Positions 4,748-57,684 of a stretch of DNA of 64,000 bases are shown piece after piece. The translations under genes and the position numbers were made by a program. Position 1 is the stretch's first letter. Each line of letters opens with the position of its first letter. The notes beneath the pieces were generated by a model. It made no database searches and had not been told where the DNA came from. It saw only the letters and a program-made list of their open reading frames with translations. The DNA lies in NCBI RefSeq assembly GCF_001677475.2, contig NZ_CP015229.1, one strand, 5' to 3'. This DNA is from Escherichia coli. Lineage in GTDB: Bacteria > Pseudomonadota > Gammaproteobacteria > Enterobacterales > Enterobacteriaceae.

Positions 4748-5662
4748 TCAGAATGTCAATTTGTCACTGGATTTACCGAATTTGTCAGACATGGCTCCCA
4801 GGCCAGACAGGACATCGACCTGTCGCTGTCGCCCACCTCCGGGAGCGGCTGGTTGTTGCCAGAAGTCTTCGAAGTGACGATCGGGGCCAAAGAACGTCGC
4901 TGCCTGCTTCACGAACTGTGTGCCGGTATTTCCTGTAGCACGTACCCAGGCGGCATAGCGTTTCACGCCATCAAGCATGGTTTCGGGTGTCACACCTTCC
5001 CTGATACGGGCTTTCCAGGCTTTGAAAGCAGCTGACTTGGAATTGCCACCAGCACGTTTGGGATATTCCTGCCAGGCCTGTTCAAATTCCGGTGAATATT
5101 CCTGTCGGGCAGAACGTGCTGGTGCAGACGCGTCAGCGGATGCACCAATAGTGTTTTTACTCTCTGTAGTATTCTCTGAAGTAATCTCTGTTGTATTCTC
5201 TGTAAGATCGAAATTGGTTTTCCCTTCTCCGCGGCGAGGGGTTTCCCGTGTCCGCGGTGAAGGCTTTCCCTCCTCCGCGAAATTGGGTTTTACAGTTTCC
5301 CGAAAACGGGTTTCCCCATTTCGGGAAAACTGATTGTTTTCATTGATAATTTCATTAAGGCGCTCACAATCTATACGGTAGAACATTTTGTGCTCAAGAC
5401 GCTTGTTGGTTTCAACCAAAATGCCTCTGGACACAAGATGCTTACGCGCTACAGCCTGTTGTTCAAATGTAAGTCCGGTTTCGTGTTGTATCTCTTCACG
5501 CGTTTTATGTACGCCTTCCGCTGCATGTGCTTTATCCTGCCAGTAAAAAATCTGACCAAAGAAAATAACAGCGTGCGGACTTCCCATGTATTTAACGAGC
5601 CCAGGGTAATAAGCAACCGGATGTCCAAAATCGAGCAGAAGATCAGACGGACGCATAGCCAC
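4748..5662 (-). CDS. Phage replication initiation protein (O-like replisome organiser)
   Basis: 304-aa ORF immediately upstream of the DnaC/DnaB-like pair; contains internal iteron-like direct repeats; start may be MAMRPS (5662) or MRPS (5656). Confidence 0.6.
   Translation of the reverse strand: MAMRPSDLLLDFGHPVAYYPGLVKYMGSPHAVIFFGQIFYWQDKAHAAEGVHKTREEIQHETGLTFEQQAVARKHLVSRGILVETNKRLEHKMFYRIDCERLNEIINENNQFSRNGETRFRETVKPNFAEEGKPSPRTRETPRRGEGKTNFDLTENTTEITSENTTESKNTIGASADASAPARSARQEYSPEFEQAWQEYPKRAGGNSKSAAFKAWKARIREGVTPETMLDGVKRYAAWVRATGNTGTQFVKQAATFFGPDRHFEDFWQQPAAPGGGRQRQVDVLSGLGAMSDKFGKSSDKLTF
5168..5205. repeat. Short direct repeats (ATTCTCTG-like, three copies) inside the O-like gene
   Basis: gtATTCTCTGaagtaATCTCTGttgtATTCTCTGtaag; encodes the repetitive TENTTEITSENTTES stretch. 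Confidence 0.45.
5214..5329. repeat. Iteron array (about five ~23-bp direct repeats); candidate phage replication origin inside the initiator gene
   Basis: Repeats GGTTTTCCCTTCTCCGCGGCGA / GGGGTTTCCCGTGTCCGCGGTGAA / GGCTTTCCCTCCTCCGCGAAATT / GGGTTTTACAGTTTCCCGAAAAC / GGGTTTCCCCATTTCGGGAAAAC; this mirrors the lambda ori-within-O arrangement. Confidence 0.5.
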
Positions 5663-5876
5663 CTCCCAGGCGTTTAAACATTTTTCCGGACTGAAACGCC
5701 ACCAGCGGATAACTCAGGGTATGAGTACGTCCCTGAACCTGGCAGACAACCTTCTGGCTTTCTGTATTGACCAGGCAAACCCGCAGAACGTGACCGTTGC
5801 TGGTGGTGAACCACTGCCCCACACGGGGGCAACGGTTGTATCGGTGATACAGGGAATTAACGACGCGGCGAATCAT
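5643..5876 (-). CDS. Hypothetical small protein (77 aa)
   Basis: ATG at 5874-5876 has a strong GGGAGG Shine-Dalgarno 7 nt upstream and overlaps the upstream stop (ATGA); lies just upstream of the O-like gene. Confidence 0.45.
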   Translation of the reverse strand: MIRRVVNSLYHRYNRCPRVGQWFTTSNGHVLRVCLVNTESQKVVCQVQGRTHTLSYPLVAFQSGKMFKRLGGGYASV

Positions 5877-6379
5877 GGGCGCGCCTCCCATTGATTACGG
5901 CGGAAAGCAGTGTGAGTCAGGCTGGTTTCGGCCTCATGGAATGCTTCAATGCAGCTCTCGTAGTACCGCATTGTGCGCAGACTTAACCCAAGCTGAAGCA
6001 TCATCAGACCATCAAGAGTTATGTAATAACCACGCAAAGAATCGCCATAAAGGTGATAAGTGCCGGGTATGAAATTACGGGTGAAAAACTCGCGCGAGCA
6101 GTTCAGATACTCGATTTTGTCGACGATATTCTGGTGCATGCGCTTGAAGTGGCAGGCAACATGCAGAGAGAAAATAACGGCCTTGCCGTTGACGGTCTCA
6201 ATTTTGAGGAATGGGTGAGTAGTGGTGGTAGTCATGGTGACAGCCCCGGTAGTCAGTTTGTTAGAAAACTCACCACCAAGGCTTTCCACGACCTTATAGG
6301 TGGTGAGACGTACAGGGGTGGAAATACCGGAGACTACCGAACCCGGCCCGACCGAAGTCGGCCCTGTACGCCCCACCAT
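5873..6379 (-). CDS. Hypothetical protein (start uncertain; C-terminal part of a long open frame)
   Basis: Frame is open from 7174 to 5873 but its upstream part overlaps the well-supported FinO-like gene; only the portion downstream of that gene is called. The stop overlaps the next ATG (ATGA); no convincing RBS was found at ATG 6379 or GTG 6472. Confidence 0.3.
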   Translation of the reverse strand: MVGRTGPTSVGPGSVVSGISTPVRLTTYKVVESLGGEFSNKLTTGAVTMTTTTTHPFLKIETVNGKAVIFSLHVACHFKRMHQNIVDKIEYLNCSREFFTRNFIPGTYHLYGDSLRGYYITLDGLMMLQLGLSLRTMRYYESCIEAFHEAETSLTHTAFRRNQWEARP

Positions 6380-6533
6380 AATTTGGGCGTAGCAATGCTC
6401 ATGACACGAAAAAACCGCATGAGCGCGGTTATGCTCAGTAATCAATTTCGGGTTTCCACGCCCGGCATCCACTTTACAAGATGCCTGAATAGTGTAACGT
6501 CCCGAAATTAAGGAATCAATGTTTTGATAAAAT

Positions 6534-6926
6534 TCAGCGATTAGACGCTTCTTTTCTACCCATATTAACTTTGAACAAGAGCTCCATACGACGAGTCCAG
6601 ATACCACGTTCTTTGAGTTGTGCTCTGGCTTCTTCGCGTTCAGATACGGATGTTCTGACAATACGATTTCCCGCCAGATTGCGGCGATATTCTCCAAACG
6701 CGACTGACTGAAGGTATGAATCTGAGCTTTTGTACTGATAGATGGCTCTTCGAAGGCTGTTTTTGTATTCCTTAGGTATATGTCCGAGATCGGCAAAGAG
6801 CTCATGAACGATATCGTGAACAAGCGGAACCACTTTGTATGGAATAACAAAGAAGCTTTCTGGATAGCGTTCAGCCAATACTTTAATGATTTCTTTATTT
6901 GCAAGATGCCTTGCTTTTCTTCCCAT
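6534..6926 (-). CDS. FinO/ProQ-domain RNA chaperone-like protein
   Basis: KEIIKVLAERYPESF...PL...SLRRAIYQYKSSDSYLQSVAFGEYRRNLAGN...EREEARAQLKE aligns by eye with the ProQ N-terminal FinO domain (KEVIAFLAERFPHCF...RSALRLYTSSWRYLYGV...RVDLDGN...EHARKQLEE). Confidence 0.7.
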   Translation of the reverse strand: MGRKARHLANKEIIKVLAERYPESFFVIPYKVVPLVHDIVHELFADLGHIPKEYKNSLRRAIYQYKSSDSYLQSVAFGEYRRNLAGNRIVRTSVSEREEARAQLKERGIWTRRMELLFKVNMGRKEASNR

Positions 6927-6989
6927 ATACCATTCTCCATTACTCTAGATATCAGAATGATATATCCAGGTTTTTCAAGCAGTTCAAGC

Positions 6990-7163
6990 TTATGCTGGTG
7001 CTTCACACTCAACAAAATCACGACGAAACAACCACAGCGGGCTGAAGCATTCATGCGGATAACCATCACGCAGGTAAATAACCCGCTGTGTTTCAGGCTC
7101 CCAGCGTATAACGTGGACACGACGCCCCCTTCCGTCACGGAACCAGCGATTGAGTACTTGCAT
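6990..7163 (-). CDS. Hypothetical small protein (weak call)
   Basis: Short ORF between the Lar-like and FinO-like genes; ATG at 7163 lies 8 nt after the Lar-like stop; RBS is weak. Confidence 0.2.
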   Translation of the reverse strand: MQVLNRWFRDGRGRRVHVIRWEPETQRVIYLRDGYPHECFSPLWLFRRDFVECEAPA

Positions 7164-7170
7164 TTGGATT

Positions 7171-7389
7171 TCATTCCACACCTACCCCTTCACGCTGATT
7201 CCAGTCATGAACAGCACGTTCTTTCGAATCAGGAATCTGGTTTGCGTTACAGCAAGTACATGCGACGTAATAACCATCATCGCCATCCAGAAAATATTTC
7301 ACCTCAATGAGTTGTACTTCCGGATTTCCGCAGAATGGGCAAGGTTTCAGCTCGACATCACCAGTTACACACGTCTTGATTTGCATCAT
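7171..7389 (-). CDS. Lar-family restriction alleviation protein (anti-restriction)
   Basis: ELKPCPFCG...GYYVACTCCNA...AVHDWNQR matches the Lar/restriction-alleviation zinc-ribbon signature (KPCPFCG ... C-x-x-C ... WN-R). Confidence 0.65.
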   Translation of the reverse strand: MMQIKTCVTGDVELKPCPFCGNPEVQLIEVKYFLDGDDGYYVACTCCNANQIPDSKERAVHDWNQREGVGVE

Positions 7390-8240
7390 TTGTTCTCCTG
7401 TAAAAGATTCGCAAGCTCAGTGTTATGGGTAAACAGCCCATCCCATGTTTTCTTCATCGGTAGTTCGCCGTTCAGATAATGGCGATATAACCAGGCAGCA
7501 CCTTTGGGCTTTAGTAACGGTTTAAAGGTGTCTCGCATTTCCCCATTTTCCTGCTCAACCCGGTTGTAGCGCTCCGTCAGATACTGATCACGTGCATACG
7601 CTTTTACACGCCAGCGTGGATACATAGCCTCCGGACGGTCGTCATACAGCCAGTTACGCTCTTCAAGGAACGCATTAATCTGACGAGTGTTTACACCGTT
7701 GAGTTGTTTGCAGAACTGCACAGGAGTGATGCCATCGGCGAGATGACTTTCGAGTTTGCTGATGTAGCGAGCCTGACGCTCTGCATACCCGAGAGCAAGG
7801 CGCTCGGATTTTTTGGCTTCAATCCACGCTTCAGCAGCAGCGATCGGATCGTCAAAGTCTGGAATAGTGTTTGAAGAAGGCGTTGCTTTACGAAAATACG
7901 CCTGCTCCATTTTTTCGAAGAACGACCAGGCCTCGTCTGTATCGACGATTTTTGACATGCGGGCAGCGCCGCGTTCTGTCCAGAGGACAAGTGATGTTGT
8001 ATGTTTATTAACCGACTCGCTAAAAGATAGTCGGAAAGATTTCAGCTCATCACTGCTGATTTTGAAAAAGTGTTTACCCTCAACGAAACGATCTTCATTT
8101 CGAATGTAGTTCTGTTGTATACGGATTGGCGTTGTTCCATATCCCGCCGCCAACGTTTCGGTGGTAACTACACGTACTCCCTGCCACTCAATAACTGGCA
8201 AGTTTTCAGGGTTGACTAATTTTTGTTTATTGATCATCAT
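7386..8240 (-). CDS. Phage antirepressor-like protein (ORF6N/KilA-N-type N-terminal domain)
   Basis: N-terminal IEWQGVRVVTTETLAAGYG...IRNEDRFVEGKHFFKI is characteristic of the ORF6N antirepressor domain; located immediately downstream of the Cro-like gene. Confidence 0.6.
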   Translation of the reverse strand: MMINKQKLVNPENLPVIEWQGVRVVTTETLAAGYGTTPIRIQQNYIRNEDRFVEGKHFFKISSDELKSFRLSFSESVNKHTTSLVLWTERGAARMSKIVDTDEAWSFFEKMEQAYFRKATPSSNTIPDFDDPIAAAEAWIEAKKSERLALGYAERQARYISKLESHLADGITPVQFCKQLNGVNTRQINAFLEERNWLYDDRPEAMYPRWRVKAYARDQYLTERYNRVEQENGEMRDTFKPLLKPKGAAWLYRHYLNGELPMKKTWDGLFTHNTELANLLQENK

Positions 8241-8316
8241 GAAATCCCCTTACTAATCAGAATAAGTCGGGCTGACGGAGTGCGGCCCGGCTTTTCTTTT
8301 TTCGTTCAGTAACCGT

Positions 8317-8583
8317 TCATCGCATGGACATTTCTGATGAATCACTCTGCCCATCTTCCGTGTGCGCTAAGCTTGGATGTGCTCCACGCTTGTTTTTGCG
8401 CGAGCGGTTCTTGTACAGGTTCAGATCGCACTTCAGAGCTCCATCAGTTAGTTTCTCAAGCTCCAGAGCACGCCCTTTAGGTACAATTGCTCCCCATCGA
8501 GTAACAGCCACTTGCGATACATCTAAAGCGCGCGCAACCTTTGCTTTAGTTCCAAAAAACGCAACTGCGTCTTGTGTTTTCAT
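8317..8583 (-). CDS. Cro/YdaS-like HTH DNA-binding protein
   Basis: 88 aa with N-terminal HTH (KAKVARALDVSQVAVTRW); divergent from the XRE repressor gene across a ~95-bp intergenic region. Confidence 0.55.
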   Translation of the reverse strand: MKTQDAVAFFGTKAKVARALDVSQVAVTRWGAIVPKGRALELEKLTDGALKCDLNLYKNRSRKNKRGAHPSLAHTEDGQSDSSEMSMR

Positions 8584-8678
8584 ACCACCTCCAAATAACT
8601 TATGTTTATCTTACTTCTATAACCATAGTTAGTTCAAGTTAACATATATTAATGATTCAACTAGTAGAGAGGATCCCC
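8584..8678. promoter_or_regulatory. Divergent promoter/operator region of the prophage immunity switch (predicted)
   Basis: AT-rich spacer between divergent HTH genes containing partially symmetric AGTTCAAGTTAAC / TTCAACTAGTA elements; operator sites not defined. Confidence 0.3.
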
Positions 8679-34006: not shown

Positions 34007-34166
34007 TTAATCGCGGGTTTGCACCCAGAACGCGTGAATCAAACCGGGGATATAGCCAAGCAGTGTCAGCAGAATATTAATAATGAACGCCCAACCGAAC
34101 CCTTTACCGAGCAGCACGCCGAGCGGCGGCAGAATGATGGTGATGACGATTCTCCAGAAACCCATA
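34007..34166 (-). CDS. yqaE: Small membrane protein YqaE (Pmp3/UPF0057 family)
   Basis: Reverse strand reads ATGGGTTTCTGGAGAATCGTCATCACC... (MGFWRIVITIILPPLGVLLGKGFGWAFIINILLTLLGYIPGLIHAFWVQTRD); 52 aa, below the track's ORF length cutoff. Confidence 0.6.
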
Positions 34167-34347
34167 TGTACTCCCTATAAGAAAATTACTCATTGTTTAA
34201 AAAGAGATTTTATCTCTTAAGCGTAGTAATTTTAGCGGAGCCTGCCAGTTTGAGCTTACGCTTTTACTCTCATTTACGCTGCTGATGCTGGTATATGTTG
34301 CATTTTTAGTTTAGAGTTTACTTAATTTAGAAAAAACTTAAATAACT

Positions 34348-45269: not shown

Positions 45270-45360
45270 TCGGGCGGATAAGGCGTTTTTGCCTCATCCG
45301 CCGTTCTGTGCACAATGCCTGATGCGACGCTGGCGCGTCTTATCATGCCTACAAACCACA
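45270..45360. repeat. REP/BIME elements
   Basis: CGGGCGGATAAGGCG...CATCCGCC and GCCTGATGCGACGCTGGCGCGTCTTATCATGCCTAC, classic REP palindromes. Confidence 0.55.
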
Positions 45361-54005: not shown

Positions 54006-54079
54006 GAAAGACGCGCATTTGTTATCATCATCCCTGAATTCAGAGATGAAATTTTGGCCACTCACGAGTGGCCTTTTTC
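54006..54079 (+). ncRNA. micA: MicA (SraD) small regulatory RNA
   Basis: GAAAGACGCGCATTTGTTATCATCATCCCTGAATTCAGAGATGAAATTTTGGCCACTCACGAGTGGCCTTTTT in the luxS-gshA intergenic region, ending in a terminator hairpin plus T-run. Confidence 0.75.
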
Positions 54080-56917: not shown

Positions 56918-56994
56918 TGGTGCATCCGGGAGGATTCGAACCTCCGACCGCTCGGTTCGTAGCCGAGTACTCTATCCAGCTGAGCTACGGATGC
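56918..56994 (-). tRNA. argQ: tRNA-Arg (anticodon ACG)
   Basis: Reverse complement is GCATCCGTAGCTCAGCTGGATAGAGTACTCGGCTACGAACCGAGCGGTCGGAGGTTCGAATCCTCCCGGATGCACCA; name assigned by position in the array. Confidence 0.85.
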
Positions 56995-57096
56995 ATCGGG
57001 AAAACTTATTTTACTGCTGATATTGATACCGCTACTAAAGCCATATCAAATAAGAAAATCCATCTTAACCATCATCACTGATGATTACGGAGAATA

Positions 57097-57173
57097 TGGT
57101 GCATCCGGGAGGATTCGAACCTCCGACCGCTCGGTTCGTAGCCGAGTACTCTATCCAGCTGAGCTACGGATGC
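57097..57173 (-). tRNA. argZ: tRNA-Arg (anticodon ACG)
   Basis: Identical 77-nt tRNA-Arg sequence; second copy. Confidence 0.85.
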
Positions 57174-57235
57174 ATCGGGAAATTTATTTTACTGCTGATA
57201 TTGATACCGCTACTAAAGCCATATCAAGTAAGAGA

Positions 57236-57312
57236 TGGTGCATCCGGGAGGATTCGAACCTCCGACCGCTCGGTTCGTAGCCGAGTACTCTATCCAGCTG
57301 AGCTACGGATGC
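57236..57312 (-). tRNA. argY: tRNA-Arg (anticodon ACG)
   Basis: Identical 77-nt tRNA-Arg sequence; third copy. Confidence 0.85.
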
Positions 57313-57376
57313 ATCGGGAAACTTACTTTACTGCAGATTTTTTGATACCGCTACTAAAGCCGTATCAAGTAAGAGA

Positions 57377-57395
57377 TGGTGCATCCGGGAGGATT
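57377..57395 (-). other. Truncated tRNA-Arg fragment (3'-terminal ~19 nt only)
   Basis: TGGTGCATCCGGGAGGATT matches the 3' end of the tRNA-Arg copies, then diverges into unrelated sequence. Confidence 0.4.
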
Positions 57396-57511
57396 ACTCG
57401 CCTTGCGGCTCGCCCTTCGGGCCGTTGCTAAAGCAACGTTATCCTTCCTGGTGCTTGCGGCTAGTACCGCCACCTCTTCCACATCTTCATCGCTGAAGAT
57501 TACGGATAATA

Positions 57512-57588
57512 TGGTGCATCCGGGAGGATTCGAACCTCCGACCGCTCGGTTCGTAGCCGAGTACTCTATCCAGCTGAGCTACGGATGC
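57512..57588 (-). tRNA. argV: tRNA-Arg (anticodon ACG)
   Basis: Identical 77-nt tRNA-Arg sequence; fourth copy, 3 nt from serV. Confidence 0.85.
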
Positions 57589-57591
57589 AAA

Positions 57592-57684
57592 TGGCGGTGA
57601 GGCGGGGATTCGAACCCCGGATGCAGCTTTTGACCGCATACTCCCTTAGCAGGGGAGCGCCTTCAGCCTCTCGGCCACCTCACC
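57592..57684 (-). tRNA. serV: tRNA-Ser (anticodon GCU)
   Basis: Reverse complement is GGTGAGGTGGCCGAGAGGCTGAAGGCGCTCCCCTGCTAAGGGAGTATGCGGTCAAAAGCTGCATCCGGGGTTCGAATCCCCGCCTCACCGCCA, with a long variable arm. Confidence 0.85.

Follow-up and report, generated by a model that had tools for sequence, protein, structure and literature searches.

The window, a stretch of 64,000 nucleotides from the Escherichia coli contig NZ_CP015229.1, carries an early-right operon with all of its genes on the minus strand. Cro, an ORF6N-ANT protein and a Lar-family protein are encoded upstream, and a DnaC-like loader downstream, of a single frame that stays free of stop codons from 7174 to 5873. The ORF list bears out the length of 433 codons given in the original prediction, and 13 of the 5303 stop-to-stop stretches in the window reach this length. 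The frame is a composite of two genes that lie in another frame (DUF4222 and FinO-like), two RNA genes (isrK and C4) and an in-frame Rha-like gene. The features of the locus are as follows:

7171–7389, minus strand: Lar-family gene, the upstream neighbour of the frame, whose TGA stop overlaps ATG 7174 (Pfam PF14354, E 2.4e-11)
5873–7174, minus strand: through-frame (eta-like ORF) of 433 codons, starting at ATG 7174 (ORF list)
6990–7181 (or 7163), minus strand: nested DUF4222 gene in another frame, starting at GTG 7181 or at ATG 7163 (PGAP) (Pfam E 2e-15)
6534–6926, minus strand: nested FinO/ProQ-domain gene of 130 aa in another frame (Pfam PF04352, 50.7 bits vs 27, E 2e-13)
6491–6519, minus strand: putative isrK promoter, TTGATT (6519–6514), 17 nt and TACACT (6496–6491), with hexamers conserved in relatives
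6408–6484, minus strand: isrK/P4 seqA-like sRNA, the a1b1 element (Rfam RF01394, 53.4 bits vs gathering score 50)
6296–6383, minus strand: C4/P4 CI-type antisense immunity RNA (Rfam RF01695, 81.9 bits vs gathering score 45)
6244–6289, minus strand: C4 target region with b2 (GTGGAAA, 6289–6283) and a2 (GACTACCG, 6254–6247), from complementarity and co-variation
5873–6235, minus strand: Rha-like gene of 120 aa, in frame with the through-frame (pN/pS 0.24; phrog_995, E 1e-55)
5643–5876, minus strand: next gene, 77 aa from ATG 5876, ATGA-coupled to the through-frame stop (phrog_1153, E 9e-43)

At its 5′ end, the frame begins with ATG 7174, which has AGGTG upstream and forms an ATGA overlap with the TGA stop codon of the Lar gene. 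At its 3′ end (CCCATGATTC), the stop TGA 5875–5873 overlaps ATG 5876 of the following gene, an overlap that had been recognised in the original prediction. The overlap with the Lar stop and both of the RNA genes in the middle of the frame were absent from that account; the RNA genes are the key to the locus.

The first nested gene encodes a DUF4222 protein, for which comparison of 19 unique homologues gave a pN/pS of 0.17 in its own frame vs 1.79 in the long frame. The second encodes a protein that belongs to the ProQ/FinO domain family by its PF04352 score and its similarity to solved FinO domains, the closest structure being the N-terminal domain of ProQ (5nb9, E 1.7e-5) followed by RocC (7rgu, E 0.03); these matches uphold the earlier claim that this gene is well supported. 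FinO-like homologues of 33–52% identity sit upstream of C4-type RNAs as well. Such distant homologues were obtained only by exhaustive search, the related-locus search having given four near-identical loci and the word-index protein search one cluster, and a tblastn search of the phage collection with this protein as the query returned no match. Small FinO-domain genes directly upstream of C4-type RNAs were observed in seven independent contexts.

The downstream third of the frame had been suspected of real translation, and it is indeed coding, with a pN/pS for the Rha-like gene of 0.24 vs 1.12 and 1.23 in the other frames. The product scores barely above the cut-off of the Pfam family Phage_pRha (PF09669; 30.4 bits vs 29.9) and below that of TIGR02681 (41.6 vs 45.95), and phrog_518, annotated as Rha-like, was matched with an E value of 8e-15. 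Residues 227–317 of the through-frame match the Pfam family Phage_ASH (PF10554) with 40.5 bits against a cut-off of 26, and this similarity falls over the RNA genes. The Pfam Ash family is probably more than a spurious translation of RNA genes, as the frame is that of P4 eta, which published work reports to be translated, and only the amino acid conservation of Ash is secondary.

The RNA module and its start codons

The putative isrK promoter is weak, with 8 of the 12 consensus bases matched, which is why the TTGATT-17-TACACT pair was not listed by the promoter scan; transcription from it would begin near 6484. The RNA that follows is assigned to isrK by a score above the gathering threshold and by the presence of an intrinsic terminator (6430–6413, then a U run) identified by terminator scan. 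It contains the motifs b1 (GTGGAAA, 6459–6453) and a1 (GATTACTG, 6443–6436). The c4-a1b1 model (RF03163) scores 18.5 vs 46.7 here, below its threshold, and is matched in Gifsy-1 and in locus L139.

The C4 RNA matches its covariance model over the full length (model positions 1–87), has a predicted fold of −47.3 kcal/mol and displays the loops a′ (CGGTAGTC, 6339–6332) and b′ (TTTCCAC, 6324–6318). The first of these is predicted to pair with GACTACCG (6254–6247) and the second with GTGGAAA (6289–6283), and the a2 site overlaps the first G of a Shine-Dalgarno-like GGGG (6247–6244). Each of the 73 unique related loci contains a perfect complement of at least 7 nt to the C4 of that locus, the sites occurring in 28 distinct sequences, and the two loop-target complements average 8.4 and 7.9 nt within loci vs 5.6 and 5.5 nt across loci. 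This co-variation was relied on instead of whole-molecule duplex energies, since the latter were no better than those of shuffles for C4 and its target (75/500; C4 with isrK, 13/500). Judged by its sequence, the locus is a C4/CI-type RNA immunity module, whose C4 would be cut by RNase P out of a longer transcript and would repress translation of the downstream gene.

The original prediction also stated that the frame has no start with a convincing ribosome binding site, and this proved wrong. In addition to ATG 7174 with its AGGTG, there is ATG 6235 with a Shine-Dalgarno-like GGGG run 8 nt upstream, and an SD-ATG at this position is conserved in nearly all of the 73 related loci, in both locus classes. 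As the C4 loops are complementary to co-varying sites that abut the GGGG-ATG, ATG 6235 is taken to be the regulated start. Of the two candidates proposed earlier, GTG 6472 is an unlikely start because it lies inside the first isrK hairpin. The other, ATG 6379, is a conserved AUG at the 5′ end of C4 that lies in the long frame, in frame with ATG 6235 (144 nt apart), and is homologous to the first AUG of Gifsy-1 orf45.

Openness of the long frame

The long frame is, with a probability of roughly 0.6, a through-frame of the P4 eta type that overlies an RNA immunity module (C4/CI type) within the early-right operon of a lambdoid prophage. A single frame is kept free of stops from the Lar stop codon to the start codon of the downstream gene, and it crosses DUF4222 and the FinO-like gene in the +1 frame of each.

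Shuffles of the nested genes, counts from the RNA module and the comparison with relatives make a chance open frame very unlikely for the frame overall. In synonymous or codon shuffles, the +1 frame was stop-free in 5–14% of cases for DUF4222 and in 0.5–5.6% for the FinO-like gene. Over the RNA module, unselected frames were stop-free in 16/146 cases and the frame of interest (frame 0) in 45/73 sequences, counts that come from mutually related sequences and are therefore not independent. Taken together, the shuffle fractions and the fraction for unselected module frames give a joint probability of openness by chance on the order of 1e-4 at most. Within the class A loci, frame 0 has no stop in 42 sequences, with 3–4 stops in each of the other two frames at about 21 variable positions, and each of the nine junction types of this class has a large upstream ORF whose stop directly adjoins the first ATG of the frame. 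Among FinO-carrying relatives, the same frame is open for 433–555 codons behind three different upstream junctions. Frame 0 is also open, without stops in 13 sequences, over a different nested gene, a real one of 76 aa with a pN/pS of 0.40 in its own frame and 1.18 in frame 0. In a P2-like prophage, the frame is open for 388 codons across a FinO-like gene of 52% identity (shuffle P 0.017–0.034).

The amino acid sequence of the through-frame is unconstrained, with a pN/pS of 1.79 over DUF4222 and 0.84 over the RNA module. The distant FinO-like genes that precede C4 RNAs have 1–9 stops in their +1 frame, so the passage of the frame across the FinO gene is clade-specific and not obligatory. Gifsy-type loci have stops in that frame and work without any through-frame. 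Most relatives have an eta-like ATG some 55 codons before the AUG of C4; this ATG is missing here.

A possible but clearly less probable alternative is that only the 3′ part of the frame is translated, from ATG 6235 (120 aa) and perhaps also ATG 6379 (168 aa), and that the openness upstream is a functionless product of chance or hitch-hiking. This would fit the pN/pS of 1.79 in the upstream part, which overlaps two genes under purifying selection, and the absence of a canonical start between 6612 and 6472. The shuffle probabilities of 5–14% and 0.5–5.6% are small but not negligible, close relatives of 92–96% identity have too few substitutions to give power to a test of stop avoidance (FinO gene, P = 0.29; DUF4222, P = 0.10), and the frame was singled out in the original prediction for being an outlier. 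Against this alternative, the frame is also open in the 52%-identical FinO-like gene of another phage type, behind three upstream junctions with an ATG each time at the preceding stop codon, and over the nested 76-aa ORF. For these events together, the joint probability is about 1e-4 or less.

It is improbable that the frame encodes a functional protein of 433 aa, or the 222-aa "ash family protein" of PGAP, whose polypeptide, including the Ash domain, acts as an antirepressor or regulator. The Phage_ASH match of 40.5 bits, the PHROG families covering the stretch, the existence of the PGAP annotation and the reported inhibition of cell division upon expression of K-12 ymfM, a 5′ remnant of the homologous frame, would agree with such a protein. 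Against this, the Ash stretch occupies exactly the same bases as the promoter, isrK and C4, and there is no protein-type constraint over it, as the pN/pS of 0.84 in the long frame compares with 1.04 and 0.94 in the other frames. Furthermore, Gifsy-type loci have stops in that frame, the PGAP gene needs an ATC start, and the constructs used for ymfM included the nested DUF4222 ORF as well, with no frame-specific mutant among them.

Two frames open over the same DNA might suggest programmed ribosomal frameshifting into the long frame out of the FinO-like or the DUF4222 gene. Such a shift is not needed and is highly improbable: the long frame is +1 relative to either nested gene, and the 8–9 stops in the +2 frame of these genes rule out a −1 shift on geometric grounds. 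At the end of the FinO gene (CGC TGA A), no re-pairing for a +1 slip is seen by eye, and the openness upstream to the ATG at the stop codon of the preceding gene would be left unexplained. Of the three options in the original prediction, a real gene holds for the downstream third, frameshifting is not needed, and a chance open frame is very unlikely for the frame overall.

Related immunity systems and a proposed mechanism

In phage P4, translation of the eta through-frame from upstream transcripts overrides termination that depends on the immunity RNA (Forti et al. 1999, J Bacteriol 181:5225, as summarised in PMC10111431). Re-derivation of the P4 anatomy from its sequence placed the eta ATGs (8767/8764/8761) in overlap with the ORF88 stop, and the frame passes through isrK-like and C4 matches to end as the 65-codon kil; the eta/"cI ORF" product matches Phage_ASH with 59.7 bits. 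In P4 and in the present locus alike, the ATG of a long ORF lies on the stop codon of the preceding gene, ahead of the immunity promoter. The ORF continues in frame across both RNA elements (seqA/isrK-like and CI/C4), and its 3′ part is the first gene to be translated from that promoter. The SD-ATG motif is the same at P4 kil (GAGGCTGCCATCATGGCT) and at ATG 6235 (GGGGCTGTCACCATGACT), both match Phage_ASH, and the Rha-like gene is the positional homologue of kil. The start coupled to an upstream stop, the passage through both RNAs and the PF10554 relationship assign the frame to the eta/kil type. The two differ in that the frame has 433 codons here and 197–199 in P4, passes over two complete conserved genes, being +1 to each, and ends in a Rha-like gene of 120 aa instead of a kil of 65 aa. 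In addition, the host element here is a lambdoid prophage with the module upstream of the replication genes in the Cro-side operon, and a FinO-domain gene precedes the RNAs.

The immI region of phages P1 and P7 (c4-icd-ant) reportedly encodes a C4 RNA with a′ and b′ loops, which is said to act on a1/b1 sites upstream and a2/b2 sites downstream in the same transcript, with a specificity that comes from co-varying loop and target. The loops, the two pairs of sites and the co-varying specificity have their likeness here, whereas the first gene is Rha-like here and reportedly icd in P1. To our knowledge, no through-frame has been described in P1.

The isrK-orf45-anrP locus of Gifsy-1 comprises the isrK sRNA with a terminator, orf45 and the downstream antirepressor gene anrP (Hershko-Shalev et al. 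2016, PMC4825925). Its orf45 contains a C4-type RNA (69 bits), and the conserved AUG at the 5′ end of C4 is the orf45 start, corresponding to ATG 6379 of the window (PMC4825925). An isrK with a terminator and a downstream antirepressor start with an SD are further points in common. Unlike the present frame, that of the Gifsy-1 AUG is only 45 codons long, its stop overlapping the start of anrP (ATGA), and another stop lies two codons upstream of the AUG, so that Gifsy-1 has no through-frame. The antirepressor there is of the ORF6N type, and the module is not embedded in an early operon.

An sRNA with an intrinsic terminator is the usual ligand of FinO domains, and FinO/FinP-traJ and similar pairs of chaperone and antisense RNA are known (PMC9977716, PMC9674577). 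The present locus resembles these in that a small FinO-domain protein is encoded beside a cis-acting antisense RNA system with a terminator-ended isrK. The FinO domain is a candidate RNA chaperone for immunity RNAs of the C4/CI class; no report linking FinO-domain proteins to C4, CI or isrK RNAs was found in the literature searched.

By analogy with P4 and P1 immI, the internal promoter alone would be active in the lysogen, and its transcripts would stop at the isrK terminator or give C4. The C4 RNA would pair with a2 and b2, blocking translation from ATG 6235, and transcription would stop before the replication genes. Upon induction, transcripts from the Cro-side promoter would carry ATG 7174, and ribosomes coupled to the termination of Lar could translate the entire frame through isrK and C4. 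Such translation would prevent the action of the terminator and of the C4 targets, allow read-through into the replication genes and yield an N-terminally extended Rha-like product. Indirect evidence for such an effect of translation comes from the openness of the frame in the absence of amino acid constraint. Ribosomes may also enter the frame at ATG 6379, which is homologous to the start codon of Gifsy-1 orf45.

A wider form of this model is put forward tentatively, at somewhat less than even odds. Enterobacterial temperate phages, both lambdoid and P2-like, may keep 390–555 codons stop-free purely as a ribosome track that begins at the stop codon of one gene and passes over whole unrelated genes in the +1 frame and over the isrK and C4 RNAs, so that translation from induced upstream transcripts physically overrides RNA-based immunity and termination, with the FinO protein as a dedicated isrK/C4 chaperone. 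The P4 device of through-frame translation against RNA immunity and termination would then be widespread in those lambdoid and P2-like prophages that gate their replication genes. If this is true, selection is able to keep hundreds of codons stop-free over other genes while leaving the peptide unconstrained, which matters for the detection of overlapping genes.

The locus also explains a recurrent annotation puzzle. The "Ash family protein", the long "Rha family" ORFs, gp41 of mEp460, gp44 of cdtI and K-12 ymfM are all readings of one frame, and the conservation of this frame derives from the promoter and the two RNA genes. Under the wider model, K-12 ymfM would be a remnant of such a track whose nested DUF4222 ORF is perhaps the conserved protein; in annotations of the Ash/Rha type, the nested DUF4222 gene is sometimes dropped.

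Long frame and nested genes

The ORF listing contains an open minus-strand frame that starts at ATG 7174 and stops at TGA 5875–5873 (433 codons), as the original prediction described; stretches this long account for 13 of the 5303 stop-to-stop stretches in the window. The ATGA overlap of its stop with the ATG of the next gene (CCCATGATTC) had also been recognised correctly, while the overlap at the other end was overlooked: ATG 7174 forms an ATGA with the TGA that ends the Lar-family gene upstream (7171–7389, minus strand), and AGGTG precedes it by a few bases. Two genes nested in this interval are read in one common frame, relative to which the long frame is +1:

7181/7163–6990, minus strand: DUF4222 gene in the other frame (Pfam E 2e-15)
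6926–6534, minus strand: ProQ/FinO-domain gene in the other frame (Pfam E 2e-13)

The Pfam match of the second agrees with the earlier view that the FinO-like protein is well supported. Over its overlap, the DUF4222 gene exhibits a pN/pS of 0.17 in its own frame versus 1.79 in the long frame. The long frame as observed is real and non-random.

The module is located in the Cro-side early operon, which also contains two further genes:

8583–8317, minus strand: Cro
8240–7386, minus strand: ORF6N-ANT (ORF6N and ANT/KilAC domains, 284 aa), directly after Cro

The minus-strand order is Cro, ORF6N-ANT, Lar, DUF4222, FinO-like, the RNAs, the Rha-like gene, a 77-aa gene and the replication genes, including a DnaC-like loader. 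ORF6N-ANT is a second antirepressor-type gene, upstream in the same operon. The 77-aa gene (5643–5876, minus strand), coupled to the end of the long frame, has a weak DUF4222 match (E 0.042, on an 82-aa ORF from ATG 5891) and may be a second, divergent DUF4222-like gene of the operon.

RNA module and Rha-like gene

The central part of the long frame coincides with the following elements:

6519–6491, minus strand: putative promoter TTGATT-17 nt-TACACT, hexamer pair conserved in relatives
6484–6408, minus strand: isrK (Rfam 53.4 bits, gathering score 50)
6430–6413, minus strand: isrK terminator hairpin, followed by a U run
6383–6296, minus strand: C4 antisense RNA (Rfam 81.9 bits, gathering score 45)

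From the hexamer pair, transcription would be expected to begin at the isrK 5' end. The pair is a weak match to consensus and is absent from the list produced by the promoter scan. A Pfam Phage_ASH match to residues 227–317 of the long frame (window 6496–6224) coincides exactly with the putative -10 hexamer, isrK, C4 and the C4 targets. Over the RNA module, pN/pS is 0.84 in the long frame versus 1.04 and 0.94 in the other frames.

The C4 loop CGGUAGUC (6339–6332) is predicted to pair with its complement GACUACCG (6254–6247), which overlaps the first G of a GGGG run, and the C4 segment UUUCCAC (6324–6318) is predicted to pair with GUGGAAA (6289–6283). Matching C4-complementary sites lie within isrK at 6443–6436 and 6459–6453. 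For comparison, 73 unique related loci were gathered by DNA pattern, so the sample is unbiased toward any reading frame. The sites on both sides of C4 co-vary with the loops: each C4 has a perfect complement of at least 7 nt to its own sites in all 73 loci (means 8.4 and 7.9 nt; 28 distinct site sequences), versus means of 5.6 and 5.5 nt when C4 and sites are taken from different loci. By analogy, start 6235 with its C4 sites appears to follow the logic of P1/P7 immI, where, reportedly from the 1990 work of Citron and Schuster, the a'/b' segments of C4 target a2/b2 at the ribosome-binding site, with a1/b1 located upstream.

The last 120 codons of the long frame, from ATG 6235, are a real gene, in line with the earlier suggestion that the downstream third is translated. 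Among six homologues (78–97% identity) its pN/pS is 0.24 in the long frame versus 1.12 and 1.23 in the others, and the Rha-like domain starts at residue 9. The earlier statement that no start has a convincing RBS is contradicted by GGGG-ATG 6235, as an ATG preceded by GAGG or GGGG is kept at this position in nearly all of the 73 loci. The two starts proposed instead fared differently. ATG 6379 is the conserved AUG at the C4 5' end and, lying 144 nt from ATG 6235 in the frame of the Rha-like gene, could yield a 168-aa form, whereas GTG 6472 falls inside the first isrK hairpin and appears an unlikely start.

In Gifsy-1 the AUG matching 6379 is the start codon of orf45 (45 codons), and the orf45 stop and the anrP start overlap; orf45 is translated, as seen by tagging, and is required for anrP translation (PMC4825925). 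A full C4 antisense RNA (34131–34214, 69 bits) is found inside orf45 of this isrK-orf45-anrP locus, and isrK overlaps a c4-a1b1 match (48.1 bits). The ~80-nt processed orf45'/STnc1160 species of the Gifsy-1 paper is probably C4, and mutations such as A107C are also located in the C4 outer stem.

Conservation of the open frame

The long frame was first read as a chance fusion, and a chance open frame was one option of the original prediction; five lines of comparative results argue against this. First, stops are avoided. In class A (42 sequences) no stop interrupts the C4-AUG frame once past the isrK 5' end; the remaining two frames have 3–4 stops per sequence (~21 variable positions each). Class B (31 Gifsy-like sequences) has ~3 stops in all three frames. 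Over the RNA module the C4-AUG frame is open in 45/73 sequences and the other frames in 16/146, all counts resting on sequences related to one another. Second, the first ATG of the class A frame lies on or a few bases from the stop of a large upstream ORF, in nine junction sequences. Relatives with the FinO-like gene have three upstream neighbours (Lar, ymfL and a Rha-family regulator), and all three junction types place the ATG directly at the upstream stop, with a frame of 433–555 codons.

Third, one subgroup uses the conserved SD-ATG to start a 76-aa gene that is read in another frame (pN/pS 0.40). Where it overlaps this nested gene, the through-frame has a pN/pS of 1.18 and 0 stops in 13 unique sequences, compared with 3.5 stops per sequence in the third frame, and its end coincides with the ATG of the following gene. 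Fourth, a P2-like prophage (L139/L140) encodes a FinO-like protein 52% identical to that of the window, again with isrK and C4 downstream, and a +1 frame without stops for 388 codons runs across its gene (shuffle probability 0.017–0.034). The shuffle probability of a stop-free +1 frame is 0.005–0.056 for the window FinO-like gene and 0.05–0.14 for DUF4222; FinO-like genes more distant than the 52% one have 1–9 stops in this frame. With the absence of amino-acid constraint as the fifth line, these sequence comparisons indicate a frame selected for openness, not for a particular peptide.

Phage P4 precedent, proposed mechanism and related loci

Phage P4 shares the arrangement, with one frame open for 218 codons. 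Its ATGs 8767/8764/8761 overlap the ORF88 stop (CATGATGATG), and it crosses an isrK-like element (8692–8615, 60.8 bits) and the CI RNA (8507–8420, 74.9 bits with the C4 model). Its final portion is a 65-codon ORF that starts at AGGAGGCTGCCATCATGGCT, a motif shared with window 6235. The parts of the P4 frame are eta (197–199 aa) and kil (65 aa). In the account of Forti et al. (1999) relayed by Mageeney et al. (2023, PMC10111431), transcripts from a constitutive internal promoter are terminated early via CI-seqA interactions, yielding CI, and kil is translated upon occasional read-through. In the same account, eta translation requires transcripts from an upstream late promoter, is coupled to the alpA homologue preceding eta, and blocks termination. 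Rfam C4 and isrK models also pick up CI/seqA relatives within 'Bro network' genes (Mageeney et al. 2023, PMC10111431). The window frame differs from P4 in being longer, in extending over two whole genes in the other frame, in ending in the Rha-like gene and in having a FinO-domain gene before the RNAs. The anatomy identifies the locus with high confidence as a variant of the P4 eta/kil and CI/seqA design.

Translation-dependent read-through, proposed by analogy, is given a probability of about 0.6. In the lysogen, transcription would start at the internal promoter alone and give isrK and C4; C4 would cover the 6235 ribosome-binding site, and transcription would stop short of the replication genes. 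Upon induction, transcripts of the operon would include ATG 7174, and ribosomes would reinitiate at the Lar stop and translate the through-frame over the terminator and the C4/target region. This would keep terminator, C4 and targets unfolded and unpaired, so that transcription would reach the replication genes. The usual eta-like ATG just before the promoter is missing in the window's lineage, which is a weak point of the mechanism. Gifsy-type modules lie outside such an early operon and have no through-frame, which fits the model.

Some relatives (L134, 1943–2500; L002, 1772–2616) carry a tandem pair of isrK-C4 modules with differing specificities, both spanned by the through-frame; the window resembles a single-module form of this arrangement. 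A stretch of 73 nt spanning the SD-ATG and initial codons (window 6247–6175) is repeated in L127 and L134, consistent with deletion or recombination between repeats.

Annotation of the frame varies. The PGAP 'ash family protein' of a 99.8%-identical E. coli genome corresponds to window 6541–5873 with an ATC start; in mEp460, cdtI and JJ1887 the annotation treats the whole frame as a single regulator of 383 aa and omits the nested DUF4222 gene. PHROG families likewise include the Ash stretch. In P4 (regions 8168–8584 and 7888–8175 compared), Phage_ASH (PF10554) matches eta, or the obsolete 'cI ORF', over the CI RNA (59.7 bits), and epsilon matches PF25738 'Derepression' without a Phage_ASH match, unlike two papers that equate Ash or PF10554 with epsilon.

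Small FinO-domain proteins (125–131 aa, 33–52% identical to the window protein) are encoded upstream of C4 or sRNA-Xcc1 Rfam matches in 7/8 contexts having enough downstream sequence (window 6534–6926, minus strand; L139 2001–2393; L143, L144, L146, L147 and L148). The spacing is 120–160 nt (547 nt in L148), and antirepressor-type genes (Derepression, ORF6N, Bro-N) come next after the match. An intrinsic terminator is the usual FinO-domain ligand, and isrK ends in one; none of the papers searched names FinO together with C4/isrK. After FinO-like genes, sRNA-Xcc1 (RF02221) occupies the expected place of C4 in L144 (2502–2587, 3055–3143) and L146 (1057–1138), and its position and identical model length (87) suggest that the two RNA families are related.

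The ymfM gene of K-12 e14 (L138 3323–3661; 112 aa, 'cell division inhibitor') has an ATGA overlap with the ymfL stop and, by sequence comparison with window 7174–6990, appears to be the surviving 5' part of that through-frame. A DUF4222 ORF overlaps it in a different frame, and purifying selection acts on the DUF4222 frame (pN/pS 0.17 vs 1.79). The ymfM work used a clone of the entire ORF and included no mutants specific to either frame, which leaves the active product questionable.

Further Rfam matches in the window are:

22964–23036, minus strand: tRNA, possibly the prophage attachment site
45272–45349: naRNA4
54006–54077: MicA
56921–57684, minus strand: five-tRNA cluster

The window is an E. 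coli-type chromosome bearing a prophage at its left end.
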